From assembly GCA_018710985.1 (NCBI GenBank), contig DVIV01000005.1, forward strand, positions 1,210 to 65,209: a stretch of DNA of 64,000 nucleotides, written 5' to 3'. This DNA is from Candidatus Limiplasma pullicola (lineage in GTDB: Bacteria > Bacillota > Clostridia > Christensenellales > Aristaeellaceae). The number at the start of each line of letters is the position of its first letter. Within the stretch, counting starts at the first letter, position 1. Below the pieces are notes generated by a model. It worked only from the letters and a program-made list of their open reading frames with translations. It did not search any database and was not told the origin of the DNA. This document shows, piece by piece, positions 3,266-22,412 of this stretch. Made by a program: the position numbers and the translations under genes.

Positions 3266-3333
3266 AAAACCGCATCAGAGCCCCGTTGACAGCGGATTTG
3301 TCCATGAAAACGGAGGCAGAGAGGAGAATCGAA

Positions 3334-5013: not shown

Positions 5014-5035
5014 GGCCGGAAAGGAAGGCGGCGGT

Positions 5036-6184
5036 ATGCCTGATTCCGGAAGGACCTATGCCATGATGGCGAAGCCGGTGTCCAGCGCCTGCAACCTGCG
5101 GTGCGCCTATTGCTACTATACCGGGAAGGAAGCGCTGCTCCATCAGGGGAACGGGAGAATGTCCCATGAGGTGCTGGAGGCCTTCATCAGGCAAAACCTG
5201 GCCATGCACGGCAGGGACGCGGTCGTGGAGTTTGCCTGGCACGGAGGCGAACCGACCCTGGCGGGGCTGCCGTTCTACGAAGAGGCCGTGCGCCTGGAGC
5301 AAAAGTACGGCGCGGGGCGGCGGATTGTCAACACCCTGCAGACCAACGCCACGCTGCTTACCGACGAATGGTGCCGCTTTTTCAGGCAGCATGCGTTTCA
5401 CATCGGCGTGAGCATCGACGGCCCCGAGGAGCTTCACAACGCCTACCGGAAAGGGGTGAACGGGGCGGGCGCCTTTGAGGCGACGATGAGGGGAATCCGG
5501 CTGCTTTGGCAGCACGGCGTCCCCTTTGCCACCCTCACCACGGTGAACCGGGTCAATATGGAGCATCCGCTGAAGGTCTACCGCTTCCTGCGCGGGCTTA
5601 GCGACTATCTCCAGTTCCTCCCCGTGGTAGAGGCCCTGCCCGGCGAGCTGGAGGAGGAGGAGGGACAGCATCTGGCCACTCCGCCCGGCATTCACGCTTT
5701 GGGGCTGGTCCATCCCGTCGCGCCCTTTTCTGTTACGCCCGCGGGATATGGGGACTTTCTGTGCGCCATCTGGAAAGCGTGGCTCGGACAGGATGCGGGC
5801 AGGGTCCATGTGCAGCTCTTTGACGTTGCCCTGGGGCACCTTCAGGGCCTGCCCTCCACGCTGTGCGTCCATGACCCCCTGTGCGGCCACAGCGGCTGTG
5901 TGGAGGCCAACGGGGACGTATATGCTTGCGACCGTTACGCCTTTCCCGAATACCGCCTGGGGTCCCTTCTGCGCACGCCGCTGGAGGAGCTGATGGAGAA
6001 AAACCGGAGCTTTGGCATGCACAAGACCTGTTCGCTTCCGCAGGACTGTCTGGACTGCCCCTATGTGCGGCTGTGCTTCGGCGGCTGTCCCAAGGACCGG
6101 CTCAGCCATCGGAAAAACTACCTCTGCGAAGGCTACAGGCGCTTTTTTGCACGGGTGCTGGCGGACTGGAACGAGGGCGTGTGA
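5036..6184 (+). CDS. Anaerobic sulfatase-maturating enzyme (radical SAM/SPASM)
   Basis: CNLRCAYCYY (CX3CX2C) near the N-terminus. C-terminal Cys clusters (CGHSGC..CDRY.., CxxCxxxxxCxGGC). Lies directly downstream of the sulfatase gene. Confidence 0.85.
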   Translation: MPDSGRTYAMMAKPVSSACNLRCAYCYYTGKEALLHQGNGRMSHEVLEAFIRQNLAMHGRDAVVEFAWHGGEPTLAGLPFYEEAVRLEQKYGAGRRIVNTLQTNATLLTDEWCRFFRQHAFHIGVSIDGPEELHNAYRKGVNGAGAFEATMRGIRLLWQHGVPFATLTTVNRVNMEHPLKVYRFLRGLSDYLQFLPVVEALPGELEEEEGQHLATPPGIHALGLVHPVAPFSVTPAGYGDFLCAIWKAWLGQDAGRVHVQLFDVALGHLQGLPSTLCVHDPLCGHSGCVEANGDVYACDRYAFPEYRLGSLLRTPLEELMEKNRSFGMHKTCSLPQDCLDCPYVRLCFGGCPKDRLSHRKNYLCEGYRRFFARVLADWNEGV

Positions 6185-8246: not shown

Positions 8247-10283
8247 TCACATTTGCTTTTGAACCAGTATGACTGCGAAGGTACCGTCATACGCTTCCTC
8301 CGACCGGTCCAAACCGCTGCCGTCGGAGATGGGGAAGCGGATCTCGTAGATCTGGTCCTGCATAAGGGACGCGCCCGCCTCCAGGGATTCGCCGCCCTGA
8401 CGGCACAGCGTCCATGACCCGGTCATCTCCTGCAGTTTGCCCTCCGCGTCCAGGTAGAACAGGGCGTAGTCCTCCAGCGCGCCTGTCAGGCCGTTGAGCC
8501 GCAGGGCCAGCGTCTGCTCTTCCCGCAGGTTGTTCACCCTCACGGTCATCAGGTATCCGGCGGCCCGGAAGCCGTCGGGCAGGGCGTTGTCTGGCAGGCG
8601 GAGGCGCCCCGTGTCCTCCGGCGGAATCTCCCTGGCGGGGCTGTCCGGCAGGTAAGCGAACACGTCCCGCCAGCACACCATTTCCATGATGCCCGTGGGG
8701 GAGTAGAGGCCGTTGCCGTCGGGATCGGCGATAAGGCCCACGGCCAGGTTGTTGTAGCCGGCAACGGTGGACACATCCTGCCTCAGCACGGTTTCGCCGG
8801 TCGCGAAGTCCAGCACCTCGTAGTGCCACATGCCGCTGTCCAGATCCTGCCAGTAGCCGTAGAGGTAACCGGTGGCGGTGCTGAGCTTGATCATGGCGGT
8901 TTCGTGGATGTCCGGCCGGGACCAGATTTTTTCCGCCGTATAGCCGCTGTCCGTCTTCACAACGTCCACCCGCTCCACGCCGGGAGCGATGTAGGCATTG
9001 CCCTGCGCCATCCAGTTCGCGTCGTAGATGTTGTCGTAGGACTGAATGGAAGAGTTGGAGTCGAGCGCGGCCAGGCCGGCGTTGCCCGCGCCGAACCAGT
9101 TGGCCACCACCACCGCGACGGTTCCGTTCCCGCCGTCATAGACCAGGATGGAGTTTTCCACCGATACGGGGATGTCCTCCTCCAGCTCATCCAGCACGGG
9201 AATCCGGGCCACCACCTCTCCGCTCTCGGAGGAGAGCGCCAGCAGGCTGATGGGGTCCAGATTATCGGTGAAGAGAACCAGATCCTCCGTCAGGGTCGGG
9301 CTGGTGCCGCTGCCCCACGAAAGGCCCCCGCCCGTGTAGTGCGCATCTTCGCCGGCGTCGTTGGCGCCGTTGCTGTCATAGGGGGTGCGCCACGCGACCC
9401 GGACCCCCTCGTCCGCCGTCAGCATGTAGCACGCCAGGTTGGTCAGGATCACGGCCCCGTCCTGATTGGCGGCAATGCCGTTTTCCGCGCCCTCTCCCCC
9501 GGCCAGGGGATAGAAGAAGATGTTGCCCTCCAGAGGCACTTTCTCTCCGGTATCCAGCTGCTGCATATAGTCCTGGGAAATGTACCCCAGAAATCCGGCG
9601 GGATCACGGTCCGGGACGATGCGAAAGCCCCCGGTGGTAAACCAGAGATTGCCCTCATAGTCGTAGACGACGCTGAGCAGGCGCTGGTCGATATCCTCGC
9701 CCAGGGCCGCGACGGCCTCAGCCACGATGTCCACATCCATGGCCTTCTCAAACACGGGCAGGACCTGCCCCTGCGCGTCCATCGTCCTGAGCACCAGCAG
9801 ATGCCCGTGAGAGGTGGGCGCCACCACGCGGTCCGCCCAGTCGACGAAGGAGTAGGAGATCTGGAGCGAATACCCACCCCCGTCGTCGCGTGTGGGCACG
9901 AACGAACCGGCGCGGGTGATGGTTTCCGCGTCCAGATCCGTCACGGCGATGCCCCCCAGAAAGGGGGTGATGGCATGACCCCGGCTGTCGTAAAAGGCGG
10001 CTGAGGGCGCATGGATGTTCTGGGTTTCCACGGCAACGGACACCGTGGAACAGATGCCAAGCGGCGCCACCGCATCGGTGACGTCGGTGGCGTAGACGTC
10101 GTTGTGAATGGAATTGTCGCTGTCTGCCATATAGGGGTTGACCGCCACGTCCTTCACCGGCAAGGGGCGGGGGACCAAAGCGCCCGCCGTCTCCTCCTGG
10201 GCATACGCCCATTGCACGGAAGCGCCGGCCAGCAGCATGAGGGTCAGCGCCAGTGCGCATCCCCGAAAGAAAATCTGTTTCAT
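8247..10283 (-). CDS. Secreted protein of unknown function (possibly beta-propeller-like)
   Basis: Signal peptide MKQIFFRGCALALTLMLLAGASVQWAYA. GGGAGGG RBS. Same strand as the alkylsulfatase gene and 28 nt upstream of it. No motif recognised. Confidence 0.7.
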   Translation of the reverse strand: MKQIFFRGCALALTLMLLAGASVQWAYAQEETAGALVPRPLPVKDVAVNPYMADSDNSIHNDVYATDVTDAVAPLGICSTVSVAVETQNIHAPSAAFYDSRGHAITPFLGGIAVTDLDAETITRAGSFVPTRDDGGGYSLQISYSFVDWADRVVAPTSHGHLLVLRTMDAQGQVLPVFEKAMDVDIVAEAVAALGEDIDQRLLSVVYDYEGNLWFTTGGFRIVPDRDPAGFLGYISQDYMQQLDTGEKVPLEGNIFFYPLAGGEGAENGIAANQDGAVILTNLACYMLTADEGVRVAWRTPYDSNGANDAGEDAHYTGGGLSWGSGTSPTLTEDLVLFTDNLDPISLLALSSESGEVVARIPVLDELEEDIPVSVENSILVYDGGNGTVAVVVANWFGAGNAGLAALDSNSSIQSYDNIYDANWMAQGNAYIAPGVERVDVVKTDSGYTAEKIWSRPDIHETAMIKLSTATGYLYGYWQDLDSGMWHYEVLDFATGETVLRQDVSTVAGYNNLAVGLIADPDGNGLYSPTGIMEMVCWRDVFAYLPDSPAREIPPEDTGRLRLPDNALPDGFRAAGYLMTVRVNNLREEQTLALRLNGLTGALEDYALFYLDAEGKLQEMTGSWTLCRQGGESLEAGASLMQDQIYEIRFPISDGSGLDRSEEAYDGTFAVILVQKQM

Positions 10284-10315
10284 GATATCCCTCCCGCATA
10301 GCGTAAACCGGTACT

Positions 10316-10386
10316 ATTGTAAGGAAAGCATGCGGAGGGTTCCAGTACGAAAAATGCCGGGCTGCTCATCAAAATTCGTACTTGAC
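10316..10386 (-). promoter_or_regulatory. Copy B of the 45-bp motif (10386..10342) plus TACAAT -10 (10321..10316)
   Basis: Minus strand reads GTCAAGTACGAATTTTGATGAGCAGCCCGGCATTTTTCGTACTGG, then 20 nt, then TACAAT. 36/45 identical to 12491..12535. Confidence 0.55.
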
Positions 10387-10401
10387 AGCGGGACTGCCTG
10401 T

Positions 10402-11703
10402 TTATATCTGGAGGTAAACGGAGGAGCGGAACACCGTCCCGTCCGGCTCAAAGCGCGCGTTGCCCCGGTGCTTCTGGGCCACGGCCTGAATGGAGGCAAG
10501 CCCCACCCCCAGTTCGCTGCGCTTGCTGGAGCGGTAGGCGCCGTTTTCCCGGGTGACCCGGCCGTCGAAGCTGTTGTCCATGGTGACGGTGAGCACGCCG
10601 CTTCGCACCGAGCCGTCCAGATGGACGAACTTTGGGCCCCGGGCCATCCGGCTGCAGGCTTCCATGGCATTTTCCAGCAGATTGCCAAAGATGATGCACA
10701 GCTCTCCGTCGGGTATCCCCTCCAGCCGCTGCGGAAGGTCCAGACGGACCCGGGTGTCCACGCTCTCATTTTCAAGCCTGGAAATATAATAGGAAACAAT
10801 CGCGTGAACCGCCGGATTTTTGCAGTACGTTCTGGGGGCGACGGGAATGGCCTCCAGCAAAGAAGCGACATACTCCTTCAGCCGGGCCGGGTCGGTGTCC
10901 GCCAGCTGACGGATCACCGCAAGCTGATGGCGCAGGTCGTGACGCTGCCGGCGCAGCTGCTCCTCATGCTCCATCATCAGCCGGTTGTGCTTTTGCTGTT
11001 CGTCCATTTGCAACTCCATCAGGTGCGTTTCGAAATTCAGCTGCTCCTGAAGGATGGTCTGCTTGCGGATCTCCTCCAGCGAGTTCACCAGCACCCAGTA
11101 AACCAGCACCACGCAGAAAAGCAGCGCAATCCGGGCAAACAGGAACTGCCAGCTTTGCACCATCTGATCCTGCAGCCCGCCGCTGAGCACGCTGACCATC
11201 CCGGCCATCACGGCGGGCAGCAGCCAGATGACCCGCCACAGCCGGGGCGCGTCCATGCGGTAGACCTGCCCGGCGGCATAGCGGAACAGGCGGTACATGG
11301 GCTTCCAGGCCAGGATGAACAAAAGCAGGCAGATCAGGCCGCACTCCCAGCTTCGGGCGGAGACGTGCATCAGCCGGGCCGCCAGAAAGGCGGCGACGCC
11401 CGTGGCGATGATCTGGTAATTGACCAGCAGCATATAGGTGAACAGCAGCTTGCCGGGAGACAGCCTGATATTGAGAAAATAGAGGGCCAGCGAGAGGGGA
11501 ATGACCGCGAGGCCCACCAGCAGCACCAGATCCGGCCTGCCCAGGGCGACCATCCAGGCCACCCCCAGCAGATGGACCGCCAGGTTGAACGCCACGGTAA
11601 GCGCCATCCACAGCTTTCCAAAGCGCAGAATATCCAGAAAAGGAAGATAGGCCAGCAGGTGGATGGGCAGATAAGCGCAAAAGGTGTAAAAAACCGTCTC
11701 CAT
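10402..11703 (-). CDS. Membrane sensor histidine kinase, AgrC/LytS-like (GHKL, HATPase_c_5 type)
   Basis: Multi-TM N-terminal half. H-box RHDLRHQLAVIRQL. C-terminal GHKL (NLLENAMEA.., GVGLASI). Start overlaps the regulator stop (ATGA). Confidence 0.8.
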   Translation of the reverse strand: METVFYTFCAYLPIHLLAYLPFLDILRFGKLWMALTVAFNLAVHLLGVAWMVALGRPDLVLLVGLAVIPLSLALYFLNIRLSPGKLLFTYMLLVNYQIIATGVAAFLAARLMHVSARSWECGLICLLLFILAWKPMYRLFRYAAGQVYRMDAPRLWRVIWLLPAVMAGMVSVLSGGLQDQMVQSWQFLFARIALLFCVVLVYWVLVNSLEEIRKQTILQEQLNFETHLMELQMDEQQKHNRLMMEHEEQLRRQRHDLRHQLAVIRQLADTDPARLKEYVASLLEAIPVAPRTYCKNPAVHAIVSYYISRLENESVDTRVRLDLPQRLEGIPDGELCIIFGNLLENAMEACSRMARGPKFVHLDGSVRSGVLTVTMDNSFDGRVTRENGAYRSSKRSELGVGLASIQAVAQKHRGNARFEPDGTVFRSSVYLQI

Positions 11704-12425
11704 CAGTCGCCCCTCCTGTTGCGGGCAAACAGACCGTCCTCCCAGGCGCGTCTGGCCTTGCCCATCAGTTCACGGCGTATGGGAATGTTTTTGCCGTTGG
11801 TCATCACAAAGCATCTCAGGTCCGTGTTCACGCGCGCCACAAAGGCCAGATGCACCAGATAACTCTTGTGGGGCTGAAAAAAAGGCTGATCCGCAAGCCG
11901 GGCCGCCATGGTGGCGATTTTCTCATAGGTGGTGATGACCGTTTCATCCTTCAGGTGAATGTTGACGACATGGCCCTGCTGCTCCAGATAACAGATGTCG
12001 GCGACGGGGATGTTTTCCTGCCTGCCGTTGCGATGGATGGCAAGAGAGGGCGCATCCTGCTTATTGAGGCGCGCCAGCGTCACAATGTCCGTCACATCCT
12101 TGAGCCGGACCGGTTTTTCGATGTATTTGAGGGCCGAGAGGCGGTAGCTGTCCAACGCATGGTCCGTGCTGCTGGTGATAAAGGCGACCGGCAGCTCCTC
12201 TCCCTGCTCCCGGAGCCGCTTTACCGCTTCCAGCCCGGTTATGCCGTCCATATAGATATCCATCAGCAGCAGATCGAATTCGTGTGGCCGCCACGCCTCC
12301 AGCAGCGCCTCACCGCTGGAAAACACCGTGCAGACGCAGGGAACGCCGCTCTGCGCCAGCAGCGCCAGCAGCGCCTCCTTCTCCTCCGCCTGATCCTCGC
12401 AGATAGCGATATGCAGTGGTTCCAT
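11703..12425 (-). CDS. LytTR-family response regulator
   Basis: Receiver domain (IAICEDQ.., DLLLMDIYMDG) plus C-terminal LytTR-like domain (..YLEQQGHVVNIHL..SYLVHLAFV). Start moved to ATG 12425 behind AGGTGGA. Confidence 0.8.
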   Translation of the reverse strand: MEPLHIAICEDQAEEKEALLALLAQSGVPCVCTVFSSGEALLEAWRPHEFDLLLMDIYMDGITGLEAVKRLREQGEELPVAFITSSTDHALDSYRLSALKYIEKPVRLKDVTDIVTLARLNKQDAPSLAIHRNGRQENIPVADICYLEQQGHVVNIHLKDETVITTYEKIATMAARLADQPFFQPHKSYLVHLAFVARVNTDLRCFVMTNGKNIPIRRELMGKARRAWEDGLFARNRRGD

Positions 12426-12458
12426 ACATTTCCACCTATACATATTCATCCTTCCGGC

Positions 12459-12487
12459 ATTATAGCATCAATGCGCAAAACCGTCAA
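12459..12487 (-). promoter_or_regulatory. Sigma-A-type promoter of the two-component operon
   Basis: Minus strand: TTGACG (12487..12482), 17 nt, TATAAT (12464..12459). Confidence 0.6.
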
Positions 12488-12490
12488 TTT

Positions 12491-12561
12491 GTCAAGTACG
12501 AGTTTTGCAAAGCTCCTCGACATTTTTGGTACTGGTATCGGAGAAAAAACCTTTTTACAAT
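12491..12561 (+). promoter_or_regulatory. Copy A of the 45-bp motif (12491..12535) plus TACAAT -10 (12556..12561)
   Basis: GTCAAGTACGAGTTTTGCAAAGCTCCTCGACATTTTTGGTACTGG, then 20 nt, then TACAAT. Points into the 12650.. operon. Confidence 0.55.
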
Positions 12562-12649
12562 ACTTTCTGCCAGAACGCTCCGTGCATTCCGAAAGCAGGT
12601 TTGCGGACAAACGCTGTATCCCCGCTGTGGGACGGCAGGAGGGAATGGA

Positions 12650-12916
12650 ATGATCAAGGATGACTTTGCACGCTGTGAGGCCCTGTTTCCGGAGCAGCGG
12701 ACACAGCTGCGGCAGATAGCCCTGGCCCTGCGCCGGGAACAGGTCAACACCATGGAGCAGCTGTGCTGGCTGTTCCAGAACAGCCCTGAATCGCTGGCCG
12801 GCATGCGCTCCATCGGCGAGAAACGCATGAAGGTGATCGAACAGGTTTACAGAGCCTATCAGGCCGAAGGCTGCCTGGCGGCAGCCCAGAGAGAAAGACG
12901 GGAGGGAATCCTTTGA
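12650..12916 (+). CDS. Small helix-hairpin-helix-like protein, unknown function
   Basis: ATG 12650 behind GGAGGGAATGGA. Contains LAGMRSIGEKRMKVIEQ (HhH-like). Its stop overlaps the next start (TGATG). Confidence 0.5.
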   Translation: MIKDDFARCEALFPEQRTQLRQIALALRREQVNTMEQLCWLFQNSPESLAGMRSIGEKRMKVIEQVYRAYQAEGCLAAAQRERREGIL

Positions 12917-14409
12917 TGTGGAATACGGACATTCCTCAGGAGGAAACGGAGCGCTGCCTGCTGTGCCCCGAGGCGCCGTGCACGAAGGCGTGCCCGCATG
13001 GGCTGGACCCCGCCGCGTTGCTGCGCAGCGTGCGTTTCCAGAACATCGCGGGAGCGGCGGACCGCCTGCCGGAGCGGGCGGCGTGCATTGACTGCCCCGC
13101 GCCCTGCGAGGACGCTTGCCTGCGCCCGGGCGGCCCCATCCGGATTCGCCGGCTGACCACCAGCCTGAAAAAGGAGCTCGTGGAAGACTTCCGCAACTTT
13201 CCGGTGGACCTGTCCAGCACGTTTTGCGGCGTCAGGCTGGAAAATCCCTTCCTGCTGTCCTCCTCGGTGGTGGCCAGCAGCTACGAAAAAATGGCCCGCG
13301 CTTTCGAAATGGGCTGGGCGGGCGCCTGCTTCAAGACGATCTGCGACTTTATCCCCCGCGAGGCGTCTCCCCGCTATTCCGCCCTTTCCGGAGAGGGCTG
13401 CTTCTACGGCTTCAAAAACATCGAACAGCTCTCCTGCAATTCCCTGGAGGAGGATCTGGACATCATACGCCGCCTGAAGCGGGACTATCCCGCCAAGGTC
13501 GTCATCGCCTCCATCATGGGCCGCAACGAGGAGGAATGGACCCGGCTGGCCGGGCTGGTGCAGGAAGCCGGGGCCGACATGGTGGAGTGCAATTTCTCCT
13601 GCCCCAACATGGAGCAGGAGGGGCTGGGGGTAGACGTGGGCCAAAGCCCGGAGACGGTGGAACGCTATACGGCCGCCGCCCGTCGGGAATGCAGCATTCC
13701 CCTGCTGGCCAAGCTCACCCCCAACGTGGGGGACATGCGGCCCATGGCCCGGGCTGCCCGCCGGGGCGGCGCCGACGGCCTGGCCGCGATCAATACGGTC
13801 AAGAGCATCATGGGCATGAATCTGGACACCTATGCCACCAGTCCGTCGGTGCGGGGCCTGTCCGGCGTGGGAGGCTATTCCGGCAAGGCGGTAAAGCCCA
13901 TTGCCCTGCGGTTTATCTGGGAGCTGGCCTCCGACCCGGAGTGGCCCAATCCGCCCATCAGCGGCATGGGAGGCATCGAAACCTGGCAGGATGCGGTGGA
14001 ATTCCTGCTGCTGGGGGCCGACCATGTGCAGATCACGACCGCCGTCATGCAGTACGGCCTGCGCATCATCAACGATCTGATCGAGGGGCTTGCCTTCTAC
14101 CTGCGCGAAAAGGCGCTGCCCCATGTAACCGCCCTGAAGGGGCTGGGGGTTGAAAATGTGGCCGGCCTGGAAGCGCTGGAGCGGGAGAGCATTCTGCTGC
14201 CCCGGTTCGACCGGCAACGCTGCCTGGGGTGCGGCCGGTGCGCGCTTTCCTGCCGGGATGGGGGACATGAGGCCATCGCCATGCGGGAGGGCAGGCCGGT
14301 CATGAATCCCTCCGCCTGCGTGGGCTGCCACCTGTGCGTGCTGGTCTGCCCCGTCCGGGCCATCAGCGGCTTTGGCCGCCGGGTGAAGTCCCGCACGCAA
14401 TCACCCTGA
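12916..14409 (+). CDS. Dihydropyrimidine/dihydroorotate dehydrogenase-family flavoprotein with Fe-S domains (PreA-like)
   Basis: N-terminal Cys-rich segment. TIM-barrel motifs (ECNFSCPN, GGYSGKAVKPIAL, GMGGIETWQDA). C-terminal 2x[4Fe-4S] (CLGCGRCALSC, CVGCHLCVLVCP). Confidence 0.75.
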   Translation: MWNTDIPQEETERCLLCPEAPCTKACPHGLDPAALLRSVRFQNIAGAADRLPERAACIDCPAPCEDACLRPGGPIRIRRLTTSLKKELVEDFRNFPVDLSSTFCGVRLENPFLLSSSVVASSYEKMARAFEMGWAGACFKTICDFIPREASPRYSALSGEGCFYGFKNIEQLSCNSLEEDLDIIRRLKRDYPAKVVIASIMGRNEEEWTRLAGLVQEAGADMVECNFSCPNMEQEGLGVDVGQSPETVERYTAAARRECSIPLLAKLTPNVGDMRPMARAARRGGADGLAAINTVKSIMGMNLDTYATSPSVRGLSGVGGYSGKAVKPIALRFIWELASDPEWPNPPISGMGGIETWQDAVEFLLLGADHVQITTAVMQYGLRIINDLIEGLAFYLREKALPHVTALKGLGVENVAGLEALERESILLPRFDRQRCLGCGRCALSCRDGGHEAIAMREGRPVMNPSACVGCHLCVLVCPVRAISGFGRRVKSRTQSP

Positions 14410-14418
14410 AGGGAGAGT

Positions 14419-14847
14419 TTGACTTTGAAAGAACTGTCCATCGACGCGACGGTCGAAAACATAGCGCCCGTCACCGACTTTGTCAACCGCGAGCTGGAGG
14501 GCCACAACTGCCCGCAGCGGATTCTGCGGCAAATCGACGTAGCCATCGACGAGCTTTTCAGCAACATCGCCCATTACGCCTACAACCCCGATGTGGGGCC
14601 TGCCACCGTGCGGGTCGAGGTCACGCAGGAGCCTCTGGCGGTGGTCATCACCTTTATTGACCACGGCATGCCCTATGATCCCCTTTCCCGGGGAACCCCC
14701 GATGTGCATGCCCCGCTGGAGGAGCGGCAGGCGGGCGGTCTGGGCATTTTTCTGGTCAGGCAGACCATGGACGACGTGACCTATCAATACCACAATGGCC
14801 AGAACATCCTGAAAATCAAAAAACGGCTGGCAGGAGGGGACAGATAG
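14419..14847 (+). CDS. RsbW/SpoIIAB-type anti-sigma-factor-like Ser kinase (GHKL)
   Basis: N-box DELFSNI, G1 IDHGMPYDP, G2 GGLGIFLV. About 140 aa. TTG start behind GGGAGAG. Confidence 0.8.
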   Translation: MTLKELSIDATVENIAPVTDFVNRELEGHNCPQRILRQIDVAIDELFSNIAHYAYNPDVGPATVRVEVTQEPLAVVITFIDHGMPYDPLSRGTPDVHAPLEERQAGGLGIFLVRQTMDDVTYQYHNGQNILKIKKRLAGGDR

Positions 14848-14848
14848 C

Positions 14849-15454
14849 GTGGGACTTCTCACAGACGCCATGAATTTTGCCATCGCTGCTCACGGCGATA
14901 CGCTGCGCAAGGGGGACGGCCTTCCGGCGATCCTCCACGCCATGGAAGCGGCCGTTGTGGCCGCCTCCGTAACCGGGGAGGAGGAAGTGCTGGCCGCCGC
15001 CGTGCTGCATGACACGGTGGAGGATGCGGGCGTGACCCCCGAGGAGATCCGCGCACGGTTTGGAGAGCGGGTGGCCGCGCTGGTGAGGGCGGAAACCGAG
15101 GACAAGATGCGCCACCTGCCCCCCGAGCACAGCTGGCACGCCCGCAAGGAGGCGGCGATTGCGCAGCTGGCGGCGGCGGAAGATCCGGGCGTATGCATCG
15201 TGGCCCTGGGCGACAAGCTGTCCAACCTGCGCTCCTTCTACCGCAGCAAGGAACGCCGGGGCGAAGCCATGTGGGAGGCTTTCCACCAGAAAGACCCCAG
15301 CCAGCACCACTGGTACTATCGAACCATCGCAAACGTCCTGATGCCACTTTCCCACACGGCGGCCTGGCAGGAATACGATTGGCTGATCCGCCAGGTTTTC
15401 GGGGAAGGCGACAGCCCATCGCGCGCATTTTCCGGCGCGAAAGCAGATGAGTGA
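14849..15454 (+). CDS. HD-domain protein of the RelA/SpoT hydrolase type (small alarmone hydrolase-like)
   Basis: AIAAHGDTLRKGDGLPAILHAMEAA...AAVLHDTVEDAGVTPEEIRARFGERVAALV. GTG start 1 nt after the preceding stop. Confidence 0.7.
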   Translation: MGLLTDAMNFAIAAHGDTLRKGDGLPAILHAMEAAVVAASVTGEEEVLAAAVLHDTVEDAGVTPEEIRARFGERVAALVRAETEDKMRHLPPEHSWHARKEAAIAQLAAAEDPGVCIVALGDKLSNLRSFYRSKERRGEAMWEAFHQKDPSQHHWYYRTIANVLMPLSHTAAWQEYDWLIRQVFGEGDSPSRAFSGAKADE

Positions 15455-15467
15455 GGAGGCATACGAA

Positions 15468-16640
15468 ATGAACTGGACTGTGGAAAAAGAAACCCTGACA
15501 ATCGCCCTCAGCGGGCATATCGACTCCGGCAACGCGCCGGCCGTTGAGGCCGAGATCATGGACATCCGGGGCAATCAGCCCCACAGCGCGCTGGTTCTGG
15601 ATTTGAAGGACCTGGTGTACATCTCCAGCGCGGGGCTGCGGGTGGTGCTGCGGCTGAGAAAGCTTGAGGAGGACTTCAAACTGGTCAATGCCTCCGCCGA
15701 GGTCTACGAGATCCTGGACATGACCGGATTTACCGAGATGATGACGGTGGAAAAGGCCCGCCGGAGCCTGTCCGTCGAGGGCTGCGAGGCCATCGGCCGG
15801 GGAGCCAACGGCATCGTCTACCGCATCGACAAGGACACCGTGGTCAAGGTGTACCAGAACCCCGACTGCCTGGCCGACGTGCAGCGCGAGCGGGAGCTGG
15901 CCCGCAAGGCGTTTGTTCTGGGCATTCCCACCGCGATTCCCTACGATGTGGTGCGGGTGGGAGAGAGCTATGGCTCGGTGTTTGAGCTGCTCAACTCGCG
16001 CTCCTTCTCCAAGCTCATCGCGGCCGACCCCGCGTCCATGGACACCTATGTGGACCTGTACGTGGACCTGCTGAAAAAGATGCACAGCACGCATGTCAAG
16101 CCCGGAGAGATGCCGGACATGAAGGCGGTGGTCCTGGACTGGGTGGCGTTCCTTCGGGACTACCTGCCCGCCGACCAAGCGGATAAGCTGGTGGCTCTGG
16201 TGGAGGCGGTCCCGCAGCGGGATACCATGCTGCACGGGGACTATCACACCAACAACATCGTCATGCAGAACAACGAAGTGCTCATCATCGACATGGATAC
16301 GCTGTGCGTGGGACATCCCGTCTTTGAGCTGGCCTCCATGTATCTGGCCTTTGTGGCTTTCGGCGAGCTGGACCACAGCGTGACGTCCAATTTCCTAAAA
16401 CTGCCCTATGAGACCGCCGGACTTTTCTGGAAGAAGGCCCTGGCCAGGTATCTGGACACCCAGGACGCGCAGCGGGTGCGCGAGGTGGAGGAAAAGGCCA
16501 TGGTGATCGGCTATGCCCGGCTCATGCGCCGCACGATTCGCCGCAACGGCTTTGACACGGAGGAGGGCAGGGCCAATATCGAGCTGTGCAAGGCTCACCT
16601 GTCGGAACTGCTGAACCGGGTGAATACGCTGACCTTTTAA
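15468..16640 (+). CDS. STAS domain fused to an APH/choline-kinase-like (protein-kinase-fold) domain
   Basis: STAS: ..LDLKDLVYISSAGLRVVLRL... Kinase fold: GRGANGIVYRIDKDTVVKVY, HGDYHTNNIVM, LIIDMD. ATG 15468 behind GAGGAGG. Confidence 0.75.
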   Translation: MNWTVEKETLTIALSGHIDSGNAPAVEAEIMDIRGNQPHSALVLDLKDLVYISSAGLRVVLRLRKLEEDFKLVNASAEVYEILDMTGFTEMMTVEKARRSLSVEGCEAIGRGANGIVYRIDKDTVVKVYQNPDCLADVQRERELARKAFVLGIPTAIPYDVVRVGESYGSVFELLNSRSFSKLIAADPASMDTYVDLYVDLLKKMHSTHVKPGEMPDMKAVVLDWVAFLRDYLPADQADKLVALVEAVPQRDTMLHGDYHTNNIVMQNNEVLIIDMDTLCVGHPVFELASMYLAFVAFGELDHSVTSNFLKLPYETAGLFWKKALARYLDTQDAQRVREVEEKAMVIGYARLMRRTIRRNGFDTEEGRANIELCKAHLSELLNRVNTLTF

Positions 16641-16659
16641 GCGAGAGGAGAAATGCATC

Positions 16660-16956
16660 ATGGAAATCATGAAAGAAAGCCACGACACCGACCTGACCCT
16701 GAAGCTGCGCGGACGGCTGGACACCTCCACCGCGCCGGAGCTGGAGGGCGAGCTCAAGAACTGTCTGGAGGGCGTCCAGAGCCTGACGCTGGATCTCAAG
16801 GAGCTGGAGTACATCTCCTCTGCCGGGCTGCGCGTGCTGCTGAGCGCGCAGAAAACCATGAACAAGCAGGGGTCCATGGTGGTTCGCAACGTCAACCCGA
16901 TTGTCAGGGATGTCTTTGACATAACGGGTTTCAGCGACTTTCTGACCATAGAATGA
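16660..16956 (+). CDS. STAS-domain anti-anti-sigma-type protein (SpoIIAA/RsbV-like)
   Basis: 98 aa, LDLKELEYISSAGLRVLLSA with the conserved Ser. Confidence 0.8.
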   Translation: MEIMKESHDTDLTLKLRGRLDTSTAPELEGELKNCLEGVQSLTLDLKELEYISSAGLRVLLSAQKTMNKQGSMVVRNVNPIVRDVFDITGFSDFLTIE

Positions 16957-17753
16957 GCCTGAAAATCGCGTATCTGGGGATTGATTTGCTCCACAGCGCC
17001 CTGCGCACGGTGCTGCAGGAGGATTGCCGGGTGTTGAAGCTCTTTACCTGCGCCACCGACAACGTCACCGAATTCAACACTGAAGTGCTGGAGACGGCCA
17101 GGGCGCACCGCATTCCCGTCAGCCTCAAGCCGTTGGCGGCAGAGGACCTGGCATGGCTGGCGGAGCAGGGATGCGAGCTTCTGCTGTGCGGCGGGTACTA
17201 TCATCGCCTGCCCATCACGGAGGCCTTTCCGATGGTGAACATCCACCCGGCGCCCCTGCCCGCGTTCCGCGGCCCGTGGCCCATGCCCGTGATGCTGCTG
17301 CGGGGGGAACGCCGGGGCGGGGTGGCGATGCACAAGATGGAAGCGACCTTCGACACCGGGGATTTGCTGCTTGAAGAGACGTTTCCCCTGTCCTCCACGG
17401 CCACGCTGGCCGACTATATGGCACAGGTGGAGGCGCTGCTTCCCGGCATGGTGCGGCGGCTGCTCAGAGAGATGCCCGTCCTGCTGGCGAACGCCAGACC
17501 TCAGGGCGAGGGAACCTACTGGCCCTGTCCCACCGAGAAGGACTGGACCATCACGCCCAAGATGCCGGCCGCTCAGGCCGATACCATCCTGAGGGCCTTC
17601 TATGGCTACGAGTGCGTCTACCGGTCGGGAGCGCGCGCCTATGAGCTCATCGGCGGGCGGGTGCTCCGCGAGCCCGGGGCGGGGCCAAGTTTTCCTGTGG
17701 ATGGCGGCTGGGTGTGCGCCCCGCGGGTGAGGAAGCTGAACTGCGATGAATGA
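16953..17753 (+). CDS. Formyltransferase-family protein (Fmt/ArnA-like, N- and C-terminal domains)
   Basis: VNIHPAPLPAFRG (N/H of the catalytic triad), FDTGDLL (Asp), C-terminal Fmt-C-like segment. ATGA overlap with the STAS gene. Confidence 0.65.
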   Translation: MSLKIAYLGIDLLHSALRTVLQEDCRVLKLFTCATDNVTEFNTEVLETARAHRIPVSLKPLAAEDLAWLAEQGCELLLCGGYYHRLPITEAFPMVNIHPAPLPAFRGPWPMPVMLLRGERRGGVAMHKMEATFDTGDLLLEETFPLSSTATLADYMAQVEALLPGMVRRLLREMPVLLANARPQGEGTYWPCPTEKDWTITPKMPAAQADTILRAFYGYECVYRSGARAYELIGGRVLREPGAGPSFPVDGGWVCAPRVRKLNCDE

Positions 17754-18579
17754 ATGCTGGGAACAGGTGGACCGGCTGCGGCGGCAGGCGGGACACGTCC
17801 TGTCCGCCCATGGCTTTCCGTCCATCTGGATCTGGAAGGAAGCCCTGGGCCTTGAACTGGTTGTGGAGGAGGACTACTTCACCGTCAGGGCGGGAAAAAA
17901 CGTCTGGTTTTTCCCCTGCGGCAACGAAAAGGGAAAGCGGGCCTTTCTGGCCGGGCATGCGGGGGAGCCGGACCTGAAGCTGCGCTATCTGAGCGACGCG
18001 GATGCCGCCTGGCTGCAGGCGCAGTATCCCGGCCAATGGAAGCTGGTCCGCCGCCCCGACGACGATGAATACCTCTACCTGCGGGAGAGCCATATCGCCA
18101 TGGAGGGCAGCCGGTTCAGCCACCTAAGGTGGCGGGTCCACAAGATTCAGCGGGACCTCGCCCCCCGCACGCAGATCCTTGACCAGAGCAATGCCGCCGA
18201 CGCCCGGCACATTCTGGATGCCTGGGTCTCCGGCCGTTCCGCCTGGGACGGGGACGACCGGGAGGTGGCGCTGCGGGCCCTGGAGATGCAGAGCGCGCTG
18301 GGGATGCACGGCGTCATCGTCTATCTGGCGGGGCAGCCGGCCGGCTTTATGCTGGGCTTTCCCCTGGCGGCGGACACCTTTGACGCGGCGGTGGGCAAGT
18401 GCGCGGCGGACGTGCAGGGCCTGACCTACTATGTCCTGCGGGAGCTGATGCTCTCCCTGCCGGAACAATACCGGTGGATGAATCTGGAGGAGGACCTGGG
18501 CCTGCCCGGTCTGCGGGATATGAAGGAACACTTCCTGCCTGACGGCAGGCATCAAATCTGGGAGGCGCAGCGGCTGTGA
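17746..18579 (+). CDS. DUF2156-like protein (MprF C-terminal / aminoacyl-tRNA transferase-like fold)
   Basis: Pattern ..DDDEYLYLRESHIAMEGSRFSHLRWRVHKIQRD.. and ..NLEEDLGLPGLRDMKEHFLP resembles the DUF2156/LPG_synthase_C family as I recall it. Overlaps both neighbours. Confidence 0.5.
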   Translation: MNECWEQVDRLRRQAGHVLSAHGFPSIWIWKEALGLELVVEEDYFTVRAGKNVWFFPCGNEKGKRAFLAGHAGEPDLKLRYLSDADAAWLQAQYPGQWKLVRRPDDDEYLYLRESHIAMEGSRFSHLRWRVHKIQRDLAPRTQILDQSNAADARHILDAWVSGRSAWDGDDREVALRALEMQSALGMHGVIVYLAGQPAGFMLGFPLAADTFDAAVGKCAADVQGLTYYVLRELMLSLPEQYRWMNLEEDLGLPGLRDMKEHFLPDGRHQIWEAQRL

Positions 18580-20309
18580 AGCAGGATGTTTTCACCGGAA
18601 AAATGTTTCATCGCCTGTTCTGGCCGTCCCTGTGGGCCTCCGTGGGGCTGGCCTTTTCCGATATGGCGGATGCGCTGGTGGTGGGCTGGCGAATGGGAGA
18701 AACCGGCTTGGCCGCCATTGGCATGACGCTGCCCCTCTTCATGGTCATCAACCTCTTTATGCACGGCCTTGGCATCGGCGGCAGCGTCCACTATGCCCAG
18801 CTGCTGGGCGCGGGAAAGCGCGAGGAGGCGGTGGACAGCTTCGTGCGGGTGCTCAGGCTGGCGCTGGTTGTGAGCTGCCTGCTTGCGCTGGCGGTCAACC
18901 TGTTTCCTCACGCGGCCCTGAGCCTGCTGGGCGCGGGGGTGGCCGACGAGGCGCTGTACCGGCAGACCGAAACCTATGCGCGCCTGATCGCTCTGGGCGC
19001 CCCGGTTTTTTTCCTCAACTATATCCTCAATTATTACCTGCGGGCTGACGGGCAGCAGAAGCGGGCCAGCGCGGGCTTTCTGGCGGGCACGCTGGTGGAT
19101 ATCGGGCTGAATCTGGTGCTGGTGCTGCTGCTGAACCTGGGCACCGCGGGCGCTGCGATGGCCACGATCGCGGGCTCGGCCACGGCGACGGCGGCCTATC
19201 TGCCCGGATTGCTGGGCAGAAAAGGCTCCCTGTACATAAAGCGGGTTCGCTCCGGCTGGGGCGAAGCCCTCGCCTGCCTGCGCACCGGGCTTTCCTCCTC
19301 GGTGCAGTACATCTATCAGCTGATCTTTCTGCTCATCGCCACCCGCACGCTGCTCAGCTGCTTCGGGCAGACCGGCGTGGCCGTCTTTGACATGGTACAA
19401 AACGCCTCCTACCTCATCCTCTATCTGTATGACGCCGCGGCCAAGGCGCTTCAGCCCCTGGCCGGCACCTTCCATGGGGAGAGAAACCGGGAGGCGGCAG
19501 GCCGCTCTCTGCGCCTGGCCGTGAGCTGGGGCCTGGGGCTGGGAGTGCTGGCCGCCGCCCTGGTGAGCCTGTTTCCCCGGTGGGTGTGCTCCGCCTTCGG
19601 CCTTTCGGGGACGGAGGTGCTGTCCATGGGGGCGCTGGCGCTGCGGCTCTACTGCCTCTCCAGCGTCTTTGCCGGGGTCGGTACTTTGCTGGAGGCGTAT
19701 TACCAGTCGGTGGAGCGCGAGAAGGACGCCTTCGTTCTGGCAACGCTGCGCGGATGCGCGGTGATCCTGCCGGTTACGCTGTTGCTGGCCCTGAGCTGGC
19801 CGCAGGGCCTGTGGTGGACCTTTCCCATCACGGAGGTGCTGTCGCTGGGCGTCTTTGCGCTCTGGCGCCGCCTTCGCCCGGACAAGGGAGAACCCTTTTC
19901 TCCCCAGCGCGTTTTCCGCCGCCAGATCCGCAGCAGCACCGGGGAGCTGGGAAGCCTTTCCCAGGATGTGGAGGCTTTCTGCGAAATGTGGGGGGCCACG
20001 CCCCGGCAGCGCTATCTGGTGGAGCTGACGGTGGAGGAAATCGGCGTGGTGATCATCTCCAAGGCCTTTGCCTCTCAGCCGGACGGATATATCCAGCTGA
20101 CGCTTATCGCGTGCGAGGACGGCGGATTTCAGCTGCATGTGCGGGACAATGCCGCCGGCTTTGACCCCTTCTCGCTGGCGACGGGGAAGGTGGCGGACCC
20201 GGAGGCGTTTGACATGGACGCCATCGGCATGCTGATGGTGAAAAAGCAGGCCAAGAGCTTTTTTTACCGTCAGTATCAGGGATTCAACACTTTGGTAGTC
20301 AGTATTTGA
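18576..20309 (+). CDS. MATE-family efflux transporter fused to a C-terminal degenerate GHKL (RsbW-like) domain
   Basis: About 440 aa of MATE-type TM helices (FWPSLWASVGLAFSDMADALVVG..). From about 19908: LVELTVEEIGVVI (no N-box Asn), VRDNAAGFDPF (G1-like), DAIGMLMVKK (G2-like). Confidence 0.7.
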   Translation: MKQDVFTGKMFHRLFWPSLWASVGLAFSDMADALVVGWRMGETGLAAIGMTLPLFMVINLFMHGLGIGGSVHYAQLLGAGKREEAVDSFVRVLRLALVVSCLLALAVNLFPHAALSLLGAGVADEALYRQTETYARLIALGAPVFFLNYILNYYLRADGQQKRASAGFLAGTLVDIGLNLVLVLLLNLGTAGAAMATIAGSATATAAYLPGLLGRKGSLYIKRVRSGWGEALACLRTGLSSSVQYIYQLIFLLIATRTLLSCFGQTGVAVFDMVQNASYLILYLYDAAAKALQPLAGTFHGERNREAAGRSLRLAVSWGLGLGVLAAALVSLFPRWVCSAFGLSGTEVLSMGALALRLYCLSSVFAGVGTLLEAYYQSVEREKDAFVLATLRGCAVILPVTLLLALSWPQGLWWTFPITEVLSLGVFALWRRLRPDKGEPFSPQRVFRRQIRSSTGELGSLSQDVEAFCEMWGATPRQRYLVELTVEEIGVVIISKAFASQPDGYIQLTLIACEDGGFQLHVRDNAAGFDPFSLATGKVADPEAFDMDAIGMLMVKKQAKSFFYRQYQGFNTLVVSI

Positions 20310-20318
20310 GGTGGGGTT

Positions 20319-22412
20319 ATGAGGCTTTCTCTGCGCAAAAAAGTGATGGTGGCCGTGCTGCTGATGGCCCTGATTGTGGCCGGGGCCACCGCGCTTGTGA
20401 GCTATAACATGTACGCCCGCTCCATGGAGGAGCACTATGAGCGGCTGACCATGAACACCGCCAGGTCCGCGGCCTCCATGGTGGATGTCCAGGCGGTGGC
20501 GGAACTGAAGGACCGCACGCTGGAGATTTACCGCGGCTTCTGCCCGGACGAGAACACGCCCCCGGACTTTGAAGCCTTTGATGAGGCGGACTGGGACGCC
20601 TACTATGCCGCCTACGACGAAATCCTCCAAAGCGACGCCTACCGGAAAACCTTCGCCACCCTGAACGCCCTCAAGGAGGACAACGGCGTACTCTGGCTGT
20701 ATGTGGCCTACATGGATGAGCAGACCGGTCAGGGCATTTACATCGTGGATGCGGATTCCACGCAAGACGCCTGCCTGCCGGGCACCTGCGGGGATATCGA
20801 GCCGGAAAATCTGGTGCTGATGGAGCAGGGCGTGTACGACTTCCCGCCCTACATCACCAATTACGAGGAATTCGGCTGGCTGTCCTCCGCGGCCGCGGCC
20901 ATTACCGCCCCGGACGGAACGGTGGTGGCCAACGCGTTTGTGGACTTTTCCATGAACCAGGTGATGGCCGACCGTCAGGCCTTTCTGCTGCGGCTGGCGG
21001 CTGTGCTGGCCGCGGTGACGCTGGTGCTGATTGTGACGCTGGCCTACGGGTTCGGCCGGGCGGTGGTGCGCCCCATCAACCAGCTGGCGAAGGCCACCGG
21101 CTCCTTCGTTTCCGACAAGGAGCGCAATCAGAGCAGCTCCGCCATCTCCCTGCTGGAGATACGGACGGGGGACGAGATTGAAAACCTGTCCTGCTCGATC
21201 CGGCAGATGGAGCAGGAGATCAACACCTATATCGCCAACCTGACCCAGGTCACGGCGGAGCGGGAGCGCATCGGCGCCGAGCTGGACGTGGCCCGAAACA
21301 TCCAGGCTTCCATGCTGCCCTGCATCTTCCCGCCCTTTCCGCAGCGCGAGGAGTTCAGCATCTTTGCCTCCATGGACCCGGCCAAGGAGGTCGGCGGCGA
21401 TTTTTATGACTTTTTCCTGGTGGACGACGACCACCTGGCCCTGGTGATGGCCGATGTGTCGGGCAAAGGGGTTCCGGCGGCCATGTTCATGGTCATTGCC
21501 AAGACCCTGCTGAAAAACGCCGCCCAGACTGGCGCTTCCCCCAGGGCCGTGCTGGAGAAGGTCAACGACCAGCTGTGCGAAAACAACGATGCCGAAATGT
21601 TCGTTACCGTGTGGCTGGGAATTCTGGAGATTTCCACCGGAAAGCTGGTATGCGCCAACGCCGGCCACGAGTTTCCGGCCATCCGCCGCGCGGGCGGAGA
21701 ATTCGAGCTTTTCCGCGACAAGCACGGCTTTGTGCTGGCGGGCATGGAGCATGCCCGTTACCGGGAGTACGAGCTGACCCTCTGCGGAGGAGATACCCTT
21801 TTCGTCTACACCGACGGCGTTCCCGAAGCTACGGACAGCCAGAACCGGCTCTACGGTACCGACCGGATGCTTGCCGCGCTGAACCGGCAGAAGGAGGCAG
21901 GCTGCCAGGAGCTCATCCGGGGGCTGCGGGCGGACATTGACGGCTTTGTGGGCGACAACCCGCAGTTTGACGACATCACCATGCTGGCGCTGGAGTTCAA
22001 AAACCTGGGCGAGACGCGCATGCGCAAAATGGGGCTGCGGCCCGATCTGGCCCAGCTGGAGCAGGCCACGGCCTTCTTTGAGAACATTCTCGCAGAGCAC
22101 AACGCCCCCAGGCGGGTGGTGGAGCAGATGAAGGTTGTGACGGACGAGATTTTTTCCAACATCGTCTTTTACAGCGGGGCCACGGCGGTCACCCTGGGGT
22201 GCGAGGCGGGAGAGGGATATGCCCGGCTGCGCTTCTCCGACAACGGCCGGCCCTATGACCCCACGCAAAAGCCGGACCCGGATGTCACGCTTCCTCCGGA
22301 GGAGCGGGAAGCCGGGGGCATGGGCATCTATATCGTCCGAAAGCTGACGGACGGACTGTCCTATTACTACGCCGACGGCCTGAATGTGCTAACCTTGGAA
22401 AAGCGATGGTGA
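20319..22412 (+). CDS. Membrane sensor phosphatase: TM, Cache-like ectodomain, TM, HAMP, PP2C (SpoIIE/RsbU), C-terminal RsbW-type GHKL
   Basis: GGDFYDFFLVDDDHLALVMADVSGKGVPAAMFM, VYTDGVPEA (PP2C). C-terminal 127 aa (from 22029) carry DEIFSNI, SDNGRPYDP and GGMGIYIV. Confidence 0.8.
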   Translation: MRLSLRKKVMVAVLLMALIVAGATALVSYNMYARSMEEHYERLTMNTARSAASMVDVQAVAELKDRTLEIYRGFCPDENTPPDFEAFDEADWDAYYAAYDEILQSDAYRKTFATLNALKEDNGVLWLYVAYMDEQTGQGIYIVDADSTQDACLPGTCGDIEPENLVLMEQGVYDFPPYITNYEEFGWLSSAAAAITAPDGTVVANAFVDFSMNQVMADRQAFLLRLAAVLAAVTLVLIVTLAYGFGRAVVRPINQLAKATGSFVSDKERNQSSSAISLLEIRTGDEIENLSCSIRQMEQEINTYIANLTQVTAERERIGAELDVARNIQASMLPCIFPPFPQREEFSIFASMDPAKEVGGDFYDFFLVDDDHLALVMADVSGKGVPAAMFMVIAKTLLKNAAQTGASPRAVLEKVNDQLCENNDAEMFVTVWLGILEISTGKLVCANAGHEFPAIRRAGGEFELFRDKHGFVLAGMEHARYREYELTLCGGDTLFVYTDGVPEATDSQNRLYGTDRMLAALNRQKEAGCQELIRGLRADIDGFVGDNPQFDDITMLALEFKNLGETRMRKMGLRPDLAQLEQATAFFENILAEHNAPRRVVEQMKVVTDEIFSNIVFYSGATAVTLGCEAGEGYARLRFSDNGRPYDPTQKPDPDVTLPPEEREAGGMGIYIVRKLTDGLSYYYADGLNVLTLEKRW

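Follow-up and report, generated by a model that had tools for sequence, protein, structure and literature searches.

Two copies of a 45-bp element flank a LytTR two-component system in a 64,000-nt stretch of the genome of Candidatus Limiplasma pullicola (contig DVIV01000005.1), referred to here as the window. Judged by their likeness to each other and to sites in related genomes, the two repeats are genuine copies of a conserved, mirror-symmetric control site. The element is probably the operator of the adjacent LytTR response regulator, which would activate two units from promoters that have no -35 hexamer; we put this at about three chances in four. One of these units encodes a secreted 678-aa protein (p678) and an alkylsulfatase, and the other is an operon headed by a gene for an 88-aa protein.

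The two copies in the window

The copies and the -10 boxes that they face are as follows.

10342..10386, minus strand: copy B, GTCAAGTACGAATTTTGATGAGCAGCCCGGCATTTTTCGTACTGG when read 10386..10342; it faces the unit of p678 and the alkylsulfatase.
12491..12535, plus strand: copy A, GTCAAGTACGAGTTTTGCAAAGCTCCTCGACATTTTTGGTACTGG; it is flanked by the regulator's own promoter on one side and by the outward promoter of the 12650-22412 operon on the other.
10316..10321, minus strand: outward -10 box of copy B, TACAAT, 20 nt past the element; predicted start near 10309.
12556..12561, plus strand: outward -10 box of copy A, TACAAT, 20 nt past the element; predicted start near 12568.

A preliminary description of this DNA had reported that the copies match without gaps at 36 of 45 positions (16 of 17 at the start), that TACAAT follows each of them 20 nt further on, and that the hexamers at the -35 position, TGGAAC and TGGTAT, are poor. 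All of this holds on recounting. So does the placement of the copies: copy B begins 15 nt after the stop codon of the kinase gene, with 58 nt between its end and the ATG of the p678 open reading frame (ORF), while copy A abuts the TTGACG hexamer of the regulator's own promoter (12487..12482) with a gap of 3 nt.

In a repeat search, copies A and B form the longest inverted repeat of the region 9800-13200 (46 nt, 80%). The probability of at least 36 matches in 45 positions is 1.4e-13, which amounts to about 6e-4 such pairs by chance in the 64-kb window, and the resemblance is therefore not a chance one. The 17-mer core occurs twice against 0.10 occurrences expected. Scans with a position weight matrix (PWM) covered the window and the relative loci fetched for comparison. 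In the window they returned copies A and B as the only sites, with no isolated half-sites, and shuffled windows yielded no sites.

Anatomy of the element

Across 43 unique 45-mers, the symmetry of the element is that of a dyad centred on position 24, with a score of 16.1. Other dyad centres in the same set reach at most 6.5 and direct-repeat shifts of any length at most 9.7. Each arm is about 18 nt long and follows the consensus C.AGTACSA-N4-TG.C, the two arms being in inverted orientation with their AGTAC cores 34 bp apart. Between the arms lies a variable centre of about 9 nt, and positions 21-27 within it are free. In this set of 43 unique sites, the direct repeat that is classic for LytTR regulators (about 9 bp, a 12-13-bp spacer, 21-22-bp phasing) was not found: shifts of 21-22 score 6.7-6.9. 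We reject the classic direct-repeat reading on these scores, which fall well below that of the dyad.

The preliminary description had seen both an inverted repeat and a weak direct repeat with 21-bp phasing. The inverted repeat is there, although it spans some 18 nt per arm and is wider than the 8-nt arms proposed. The direct repeat did not survive as a main symmetry: it comes down to two T-tracts on the same strand (positions 13-16 and 33-37). These tracts, together with the ends (GTCAAG versus CCAG), are the asymmetric parts of the element. Being in phase, the T-tracts could produce a directional bend.

Conservation across genomes and metagenomes

Three independent anchors were used to find relatives: homologs of the kinase, a scan of metagenome contigs for the DNA pattern of the element, and homologs of the 88-aa protein. 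Kinase homologs form a graded family that runs from 99% down to about 25% identity, and their alignment served to fetch 80 genome loci; labels such as L001 denote fetched relative loci. Carriers of the system among them include Catenibacillus scindens DSM 106146 (L008, L016), Intestinimonas aquisgranensis (L004) and the closed chromosome OZ006967.1 (L019). These kinase-anchored loci and the window together hold 25 element sites in 1.04 Mb by PWM scan, and shuffled sequences hold none. A strict DNA pattern made from the invariant positions matched 66 metagenome contigs, most of which have a regulator gene 57-62 nt from the GTCAAG end and the start of an 88-aa homolog about 115 nt from the GTACTGG end. 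Finally, the contigs that encode distant homologs of the 88-aa protein were looked up, and three of them (L147, L149 and L151) carry the element. It faces away from a LytTR regulator in L147 and L151; L149 is too short to show its neighbours.

The preliminary description had suggested an alignment of orthologous intergenic regions. Run on 14 complete intergenic regions (alignment A4), it resolves four blocks: the extended -10 and the -35 of the regulator's promoter, the two arms, an A-rich spacer and TA.AAT. Copy A is orthologous in position throughout, and both its arms and the outward TA.AAT are invariant.

Most relatives carry a single copy of the element. Two copies were seen in several genomes: L018 (370-414 and 6173-6217), L151 (371-415 and 1989-2033), and the pair L082 and L133. 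The L018 arrangement consists of tandem cassettes of element, small gene and giant surface-protein gene. In L151 the second copy is internal to the operon. The copies L082 and L133 are orphans on one 3-Mb contig, BNJS01003841.1, each before one of two paralogous genes for beta-helix surface proteins.

Outward promoters and their spacing

The distance from the element to the outward -10 box is nearly fixed. A TA.AAT box lies exactly 20 nt beyond the element in 40 of 57 unique sites, and a strong TA...T box is found at +20 to +22 in 42 of the 57, compared with 0.7% of random positions. Copy B keeps its spacing in relatives, with TACAAT in L002 and TAGAAT in L154. The regulator-proximal copy of L002 has lost 1 nt inside the element and has its TACAAT at 21 nt, which leaves the distal arm as far from the -10 box as before.

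No -35 accompanies the two outward TACAAT boxes of the window: a promoter scan of 10200-12700 gives no full promoter at either of them. The layout of an activator-dependent promoter, proposed in the preliminary description, thus gains comparative support from the 20-nt spacing in 40/57 sites and from the missing -35. The element appears to sit where an activator would have to bind in order to switch on promoters of this kind.

Other features recur just past the outward -10. Eight loci (L018, L021, L026, L028, L030, L110, L147 and L149) carry the motif AG(T/A)(A/C)(T/C)TTGACA, e.g. TAAAATAGTATTGACAAA, about 5 nt after an outward -10 of the form TAAAAT. Sequences of the TAAAATAGTATTGACAAA type resemble the GTCAAGTAC arm of copy A in reverse complement; they could represent either a third half-site that covers the start or the -35 of a second promoter. 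In the window, AGTAC directly follows the TACAAT of copy B (10315..10311) and does not follow that of copy A. Further downstream, a leader CTTGTTCTA is common to L147 (about 925-945) and L149 (about 293-305) and is absent from the window.

The element tracks the regulator clade

Two genes lie between the copies, and they are the only ones there.

11703..12425, minus strand: response regulator with receiver and LytTR domains (Pfam Response_reg, E = 1.4e-19; LytTR, E = 1.4e-13).
10402..11703, minus strand: sensor histidine kinase of 433 aa with a C-terminal GHKL domain (HATPase_c_5, E = 1.5e-14).

The ORF of the regulator extends to 12449. The likelier start is the ATG at 12425, which stands behind an AGGTGG ribosome-binding site and is the methionine from which relatives align in tblastn. 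An exact-sequence look-up of the regulator found no identical record. The receiver aspartate is probably D56 of the 240-aa protein, to judge from its LLLMD motif. The kinase has about 6-7 hydrophobic segments in residues 1-206, followed by an RHDLRH H-box at H255.

Wherever the regulator is closely related to that of the window, the element is nearly always present. The full element occurs at 20 of the 24 loci whose regulator is at least 51% identical, and the regulator-proximal arm at 23 of these 24, always 49-69 nt upstream of the regulator start. Neither was found at any of 36 loci with a regulator below 45% identity. L147, with a regulator 47% identical, has the element. Changes in the rest of the system leave the element in place: it is kept with a different type of kinase of about 600 aa (L026-L034), and it is kept in L004, where the regulator gene follows the kinase gene in the opposite orientation. 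Across the loci compared, the element evidently tracks the regulator clade and not the kinase type or the gene order. The preliminary description had named the adjacent LytTR regulator as the most economical binder, a proposal that this co-occurrence supports.

Sister LytTR clades look different. In L070, L073 and L079, whose regulators are about 25% identical to that of the window, direct GAGTCRTAA repeats about 20 bp apart are found some 65 nt upstream of the regulator genes, which makes the contrast with the dyad of the window's clade explicit.

The regulator's own promoter

The regulator and the kinase have a promoter of their own next to copy A.

12459..12487, minus strand: regulator's promoter, with TTGACG (12487..12482), a 17-nt spacer, TATAAT (12464..12459) and TG at 12467..12466; predicted start near 12452.

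It is the sole full sigma-70-type promoter found by the scan of 10200-12700, with a match of 11/12 and an upstream TG. Its -10, -35 and spacer are conserved over the 14 loci of alignment A4. The spacer portion 12468-12481 (ATGCACAAAAA before GTCAATTT; A4 columns ~49-61) is conserved clade-wide, beyond what a spacer usually needs.

Relative to this promoter, the GTCAAGTAC arm of copy A occupies about -39 to -55, just upstream of the -35. Five lineages have lost the divergent target, and all five have kept the regulator-proximal arm; the other arm is gone in L003, L009 and L027 and decayed in L011 and L012. This retention argues that the proximal arm serves the regulator's own promoter too. Feedback on that promoter had also been put forward in the preliminary description. 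It is the weakest part of that picture, and the five target-loss lineages lend it indirect support.

Rearranged loci of several kinds were met around this promoter. In L002 (2446-2630) and L107, which have no regulator gene, the kinase sits directly behind the regulator's promoter; in L154 (4095-5000) it is the kinase gene that is missing. L005 (6172-8343, Pseudoflavonifractor phocaeensis) is a decaying locus in which the 3' end of the kinase gene is fused to a remnant of an alkylsulfatase C-terminus; its outward arm is degraded, and it has no -10 and no small gene.

The copy-B unit

Copy B faces a unit of two genes.

8247-10283, minus strand: secreted 678-aa protein p678.
6252-8219, minus strand: secreted alkylsulfatase (by Pfam).

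For p678 there is no Pfam or NCBIfam match. Its AlphaFold2 model (mean predicted local distance difference test, pLDDT, 83.1) consists of a beta-propeller and a C-terminal beta domain, and the Foldseek matches of the model are propellers of the BamB/YxaL/PQQ type. The protein belongs to a very large family without annotation (at least 8000 matches).

An orthologous copy B precedes p678 homologs in L002 and L154, and sites like copy B also occur in L101 and L092. The more distant p678 homologs of L156 and L157 lack the element, and copy B is, to judge from these, specific to the window's lineage. The preliminary description had both units under the control of one regulator; in keeping with this, the closest relatives (L002 and L154) keep both copies, with intact arms and diverged centres.

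The surroundings of p678 hold two further observations. Homologs of p678 adjoin unrelated LytTR/GHKL two-component systems in L077 (1-927) and L157 (5001-7142), there without the element. In the window, a sulfatase and a radical-SAM/SPASM protein, similar to anaerobic sulfatase-maturating enzymes, lie beside the alkylsulfatase unit (3286-6184, plus strand), which places the copy-B target in a sulfatase island.

The copy-A operon and its small leading protein

Copy A points into a longer operon.

12650..12916, plus strand: 88-aa all-helical protein, whose gene opens the copy-A operon; its stop codon and the beginning of the following gene (12913) overlap.
12913..22412, plus strand: rest of the operon (by Pfam), with a DHO_dh/4Fe-4S protein, an RsbW-like kinase, HD_4, a STAS-APH fusion and STAS.
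12913..22412, plus strand, continued: formyltransferase-like and LPG_synthase_C-like proteins, a MatE-HATPase_c_2 fusion and a SpoIIE-HATPase_c_2 fusion (by Pfam).

The preliminary description had copy A pointing into the 12650..22412 operon. The orientation stands, and across the family the constant target is just the small heading gene (12650-12916). In most loci a homolog of this gene comes directly after the regulator-proximal copy, and no other neighbour on the GTACTGG side is as constant. The window's order of partner-switching genes after the small gene recurs in L001, L004, L115 and L154. Elsewhere, the cargo behind the small gene consists of surface proteins of 800-1500 aa that are SLH-anchored or carry Ig-like or beta-helix domains; further cargo types behind the element are MalT/LuxR-type regulators and an enzyme resembling nonribosomal peptide synthetases. 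The partner-switching fusions of the window are themselves unusual: STAS with an APH-type kinase (15447-16640), MatE with HATPase_c_2 (18576-20309) and SpoIIE with HATPase_c_2 (20319-22412), all on the plus strand.

A word-indexed homolog search for the 88-aa protein returned 4 matches, and an exhaustive HMMER search was used instead; by the latter, the family comprises about 80 clusters at 50% identity. The protein appears to resemble the C-terminal domain of the RNA polymerase alpha subunit (alpha-CTD). Pfam RNA_pol_A_CTD is matched by 19 of 53 family members at E <=0.01, and the L026 homolog scores 21.2 bits against the cutoff of 23.8; the window protein itself has no Pfam match. The eight best profile matches of the family in the PDB are all alpha-CTD chains (best E = 1.4e-3). 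Its AlphaFold2 model has a pLDDT of 82.8, and all matches of this model to the PDB in Foldseek have E >1; two of low rmsd among them come from RNA polymerase activation complexes.

How the element may work, and what else it could be

We infer binding, its stoichiometry, the transcription starts and the direction of regulation (activation as opposed to repression). Most likely, a phosphorylated dimer of the regulator binds the element, with one LytTR domain on each arm. If transcription starts 7 nt after the -10 box, the element would span about -77 to -33, and its proximal GTACTGG arm would lie over the -35 position. This would be the geometry of a class II activator, in which the bound regulator replaces the -35 contact. 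With the regulator at both outward promoters, a signal through the kinase would turn on two units together: copy A would drive the operon headed by the alpha-CTD-like protein and continued by the partner-switching genes, and copy B the secreted beta-propeller protein and the alkylsulfatase. The genes for the regulator and the kinase would have basal expression from their near-consensus, extended -10 promoter. Regulator bound at copy A probably also modulates this promoter, because the GTCAAGTAC arm is just upstream of its -35.

Several observations weigh against the LytTR regulator as the operator's partner. The classic site of a LytTR response regulator is a direct repeat pair, a pattern that the 45-bp element does not show. 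The regulator gene is missing from L002 and L107 and the kinase gene from L154, L155 and L092; both element copies are nonetheless intact in all of these loci. For L002, L107, L154 and L092 one must therefore assume a partner encoded elsewhere or another binder. Some copies have no nearby regulator (L082/L133, L091 and L102), and the small alpha-CTD-like protein accompanies the element nearly as faithfully as the regulator. Nor do the 66 metagenome matches supply an argument for conservation of the arms, since the pattern fixed the arm sequences.

A rival reading keeps the element as a genuine operator but gives it a different binder, in place of the LytTR regulator or alongside it. The obvious candidate would be the alpha-CTD-like helix-hairpin-helix protein encoded just behind the element, acting in autoregulation. 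No gene is found more constantly on the GTACTGG side, the element is joined by the small gene where no regulator is adjacent (L018 at 370-414, L085, L117, L134 and L135), and the element stays intact in L002 and L107 despite the loss of the regulator gene. In a profile-to-PDB alignment, moreover, the 88-aa family has preserved the residues that match R, G and K on the DNA-binding surface of alpha-CTD (numbering of E. coli alpha). Yet element and regulator persist without the small gene in L014, L104, L125 and L030, the proximal arm is retained wherever the regulator is retained, and no small gene lies downstream of copy B. The site is also of the wrong kind: alpha-CTD recognizes A/T-rich minor-groove sites, unlike a 45-bp dyad with GC-containing AGTAC cores. 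We consider a different binder unlikely. Somewhat less probable still is that the regulator occupies -77 to -33 as a repressor of promoters driven by another sigma factor or activator. The site does overlap the -35 position, so that steric block is feasible, several relatives have an additional AGTA/TTGACA-like sequence over the predicted start, and VirR is reported to be mainly negative at the level of the transcriptome, though indirectly (PMC4877802). On the other hand, the outward promoters have no recognizable -35 and hence nothing obvious to repress. The strict 20-nt phasing and the compensation in L002 fit an activator contact on one face of the helix, where occlusion needs no phasing, and known LytTR regulators at such a position activate (PMC4227749, PMC4877802).

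Two further readings do without an operator. The inverted copies might be the terminal inverted repeats of a mobile or invertible cassette carrying the two-component system, given that they flank a 2.1-kb segment of two genes and that gene order varies (the regulator is inverted in L004 and missing in L002, the kinase missing in L154). We reject such ends as very improbable: the copies enclose only the regulator and the kinase, the genes in and around this segment include no transposase or recombinase, most relatives have a single copy, conservation reaches beyond the copies to -10 boxes at a fixed spacing, and the copies remain at the promoters of unrelated cargo genes. Even less credible is a role in the transcript, where the repeat would fold into a terminator or attenuator hairpin, both downstream of the kinase gene and within a leader. 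Copy B does lie 15 nt after the kinase stop and its arms are able to pair. Against this, folding energies are no better than those of shuffles (z = 0.73, 0.08 and 0.32), neither the element nor the end of the kinase gene has a T-run or a terminator call, no Rfam match was found, copy A is upstream of both predicted transcription starts, and the base changes between the copies break the pairing (AGTACGAG versus TTGGTACT). The hairpin was rejected on the shuffles, the terminator calls and Rfam.

Binding by the LytTR regulator, our preferred reading, has a possible extension, which we offer as doubtful. Regulator, dyad operator and stand-alone alpha-CTD paralog may form a conserved module, in which the regulator would first induce the alpha-CTD mimic so as to license the cargo operons. 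If so, the mimic would act on RNA polymerase or on promoter DNA, and at promoters without a -35 it might either provide an UP-element or activator contact or compete for one. The cargo so licensed would be giant SLH-anchored surface proteins, partner-switching modules and MalT/LuxR regulators. Such induction would be a feed-forward step undescribed for any LytTR system, and in the literature we found no stand-alone alpha-CTD partner described specifically for a system of this kind.

Comparison with known systems

No component of the system reaches a curated NCBIfam cutoff, and searches of the literature turned up no specific description of the system or of a palindromic LytTR site for it. Several better-known systems are close to it. 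In agr of Staphylococcus aureus, the sites of AgrA are found between divergent promoters whose core elements are suboptimal, which makes transcription dependent on the activator (PMC4227749). The window resembles agr P2-P3 in having a LytTR regulator, a multi-pass GHKL kinase and sites between the divergent promoters of a regulator operon and an effector. It differs in two respects. AgrA has pairs of direct repeats, separate for each promoter (PMC4227749), where the window has one shared 45-bp dyad, and the regulator's own promoter in the window is near-consensus rather than weak. By Pfam, none of the flanking ORFs is an agrB/agrD- or comC/comAB-like gene, within a survey that left very small peptide genes and distant loci uncovered.

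VirS/VirR of Clostridium perfringens is likewise a clostridial LytTR regulator with a multi-pass kinase. VirR has a small direct regulon and a bipartite box just upstream of its target promoters, and these boxes need a strict spatial organization (PMC4877802). VirR boxes are two imperfect direct repeats, whereas the arms of the window element are inverted. The consensus of the VirR box starts with CCAGT and may in this resemble the CCAGTAC arm of the window element.

Boxes of the ComE, BlpR and PlnC/D type are made of 9-10-bp repeats at a phasing of about 21 bp. They share with the window a bipartite site beside a -35-poor promoter, from which the regulator operon and effector operons are driven. 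Those sites are direct repeats, however, and no genes for a peptide precursor or its export were detected beside the window system. Among full-length LytTR regulators in the PDB, ComE alone (4cbv, E = 1.6e-5) matches the regulator of the window.

An inverted LytTR site has a precedent in HigX, a membrane-anchored LytTR factor of Caulobacter crescentus that recognizes an imperfect inverted repeat (PMC13384398). The HigX half-sites are 8 bp long and adjoin each other without a spacer, and HigX does not belong to the response regulators; the window has arms of about 18 nt, a variable centre and a receiver-LytTR protein. A broader parallel is to class II promoters of CRP. There, the site is centred at -41.5, its proximal half overlaps the -35, and helical phasing to the -10 is strict. 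The proximal half of the window dyad would similarly stand in for the missing -35, provided that transcription starts about 7 nt after TACAAT. Unlike CRP, the regulator is of another protein family, the operator is 45 bp as against 22 bp, and the starts are predicted rather than mapped.

The dyad would provide a specific operator model for an uncharacterized LytTR clade that is common in human-gut Oscillospiraceae and Lachnospiraceae, and would make its regulons readable from sequence. It would also link the systems of this clade to the control of large cell-surface proteins and to an unstudied alpha-CTD-like small protein; the case would be of greater note if that protein proved to be a working part of the switch. 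A receiver-LytTR regulator with a widely spaced inverted repeat in place of the textbook direct repeat bears, in addition, on how LytTR dimers are arranged on DNA. By analogy, this is probably not a new kind of system: it appears to work like the agr P2/P3 and VirR-box arrangements, yet it fails their defining direct-repeat feature.

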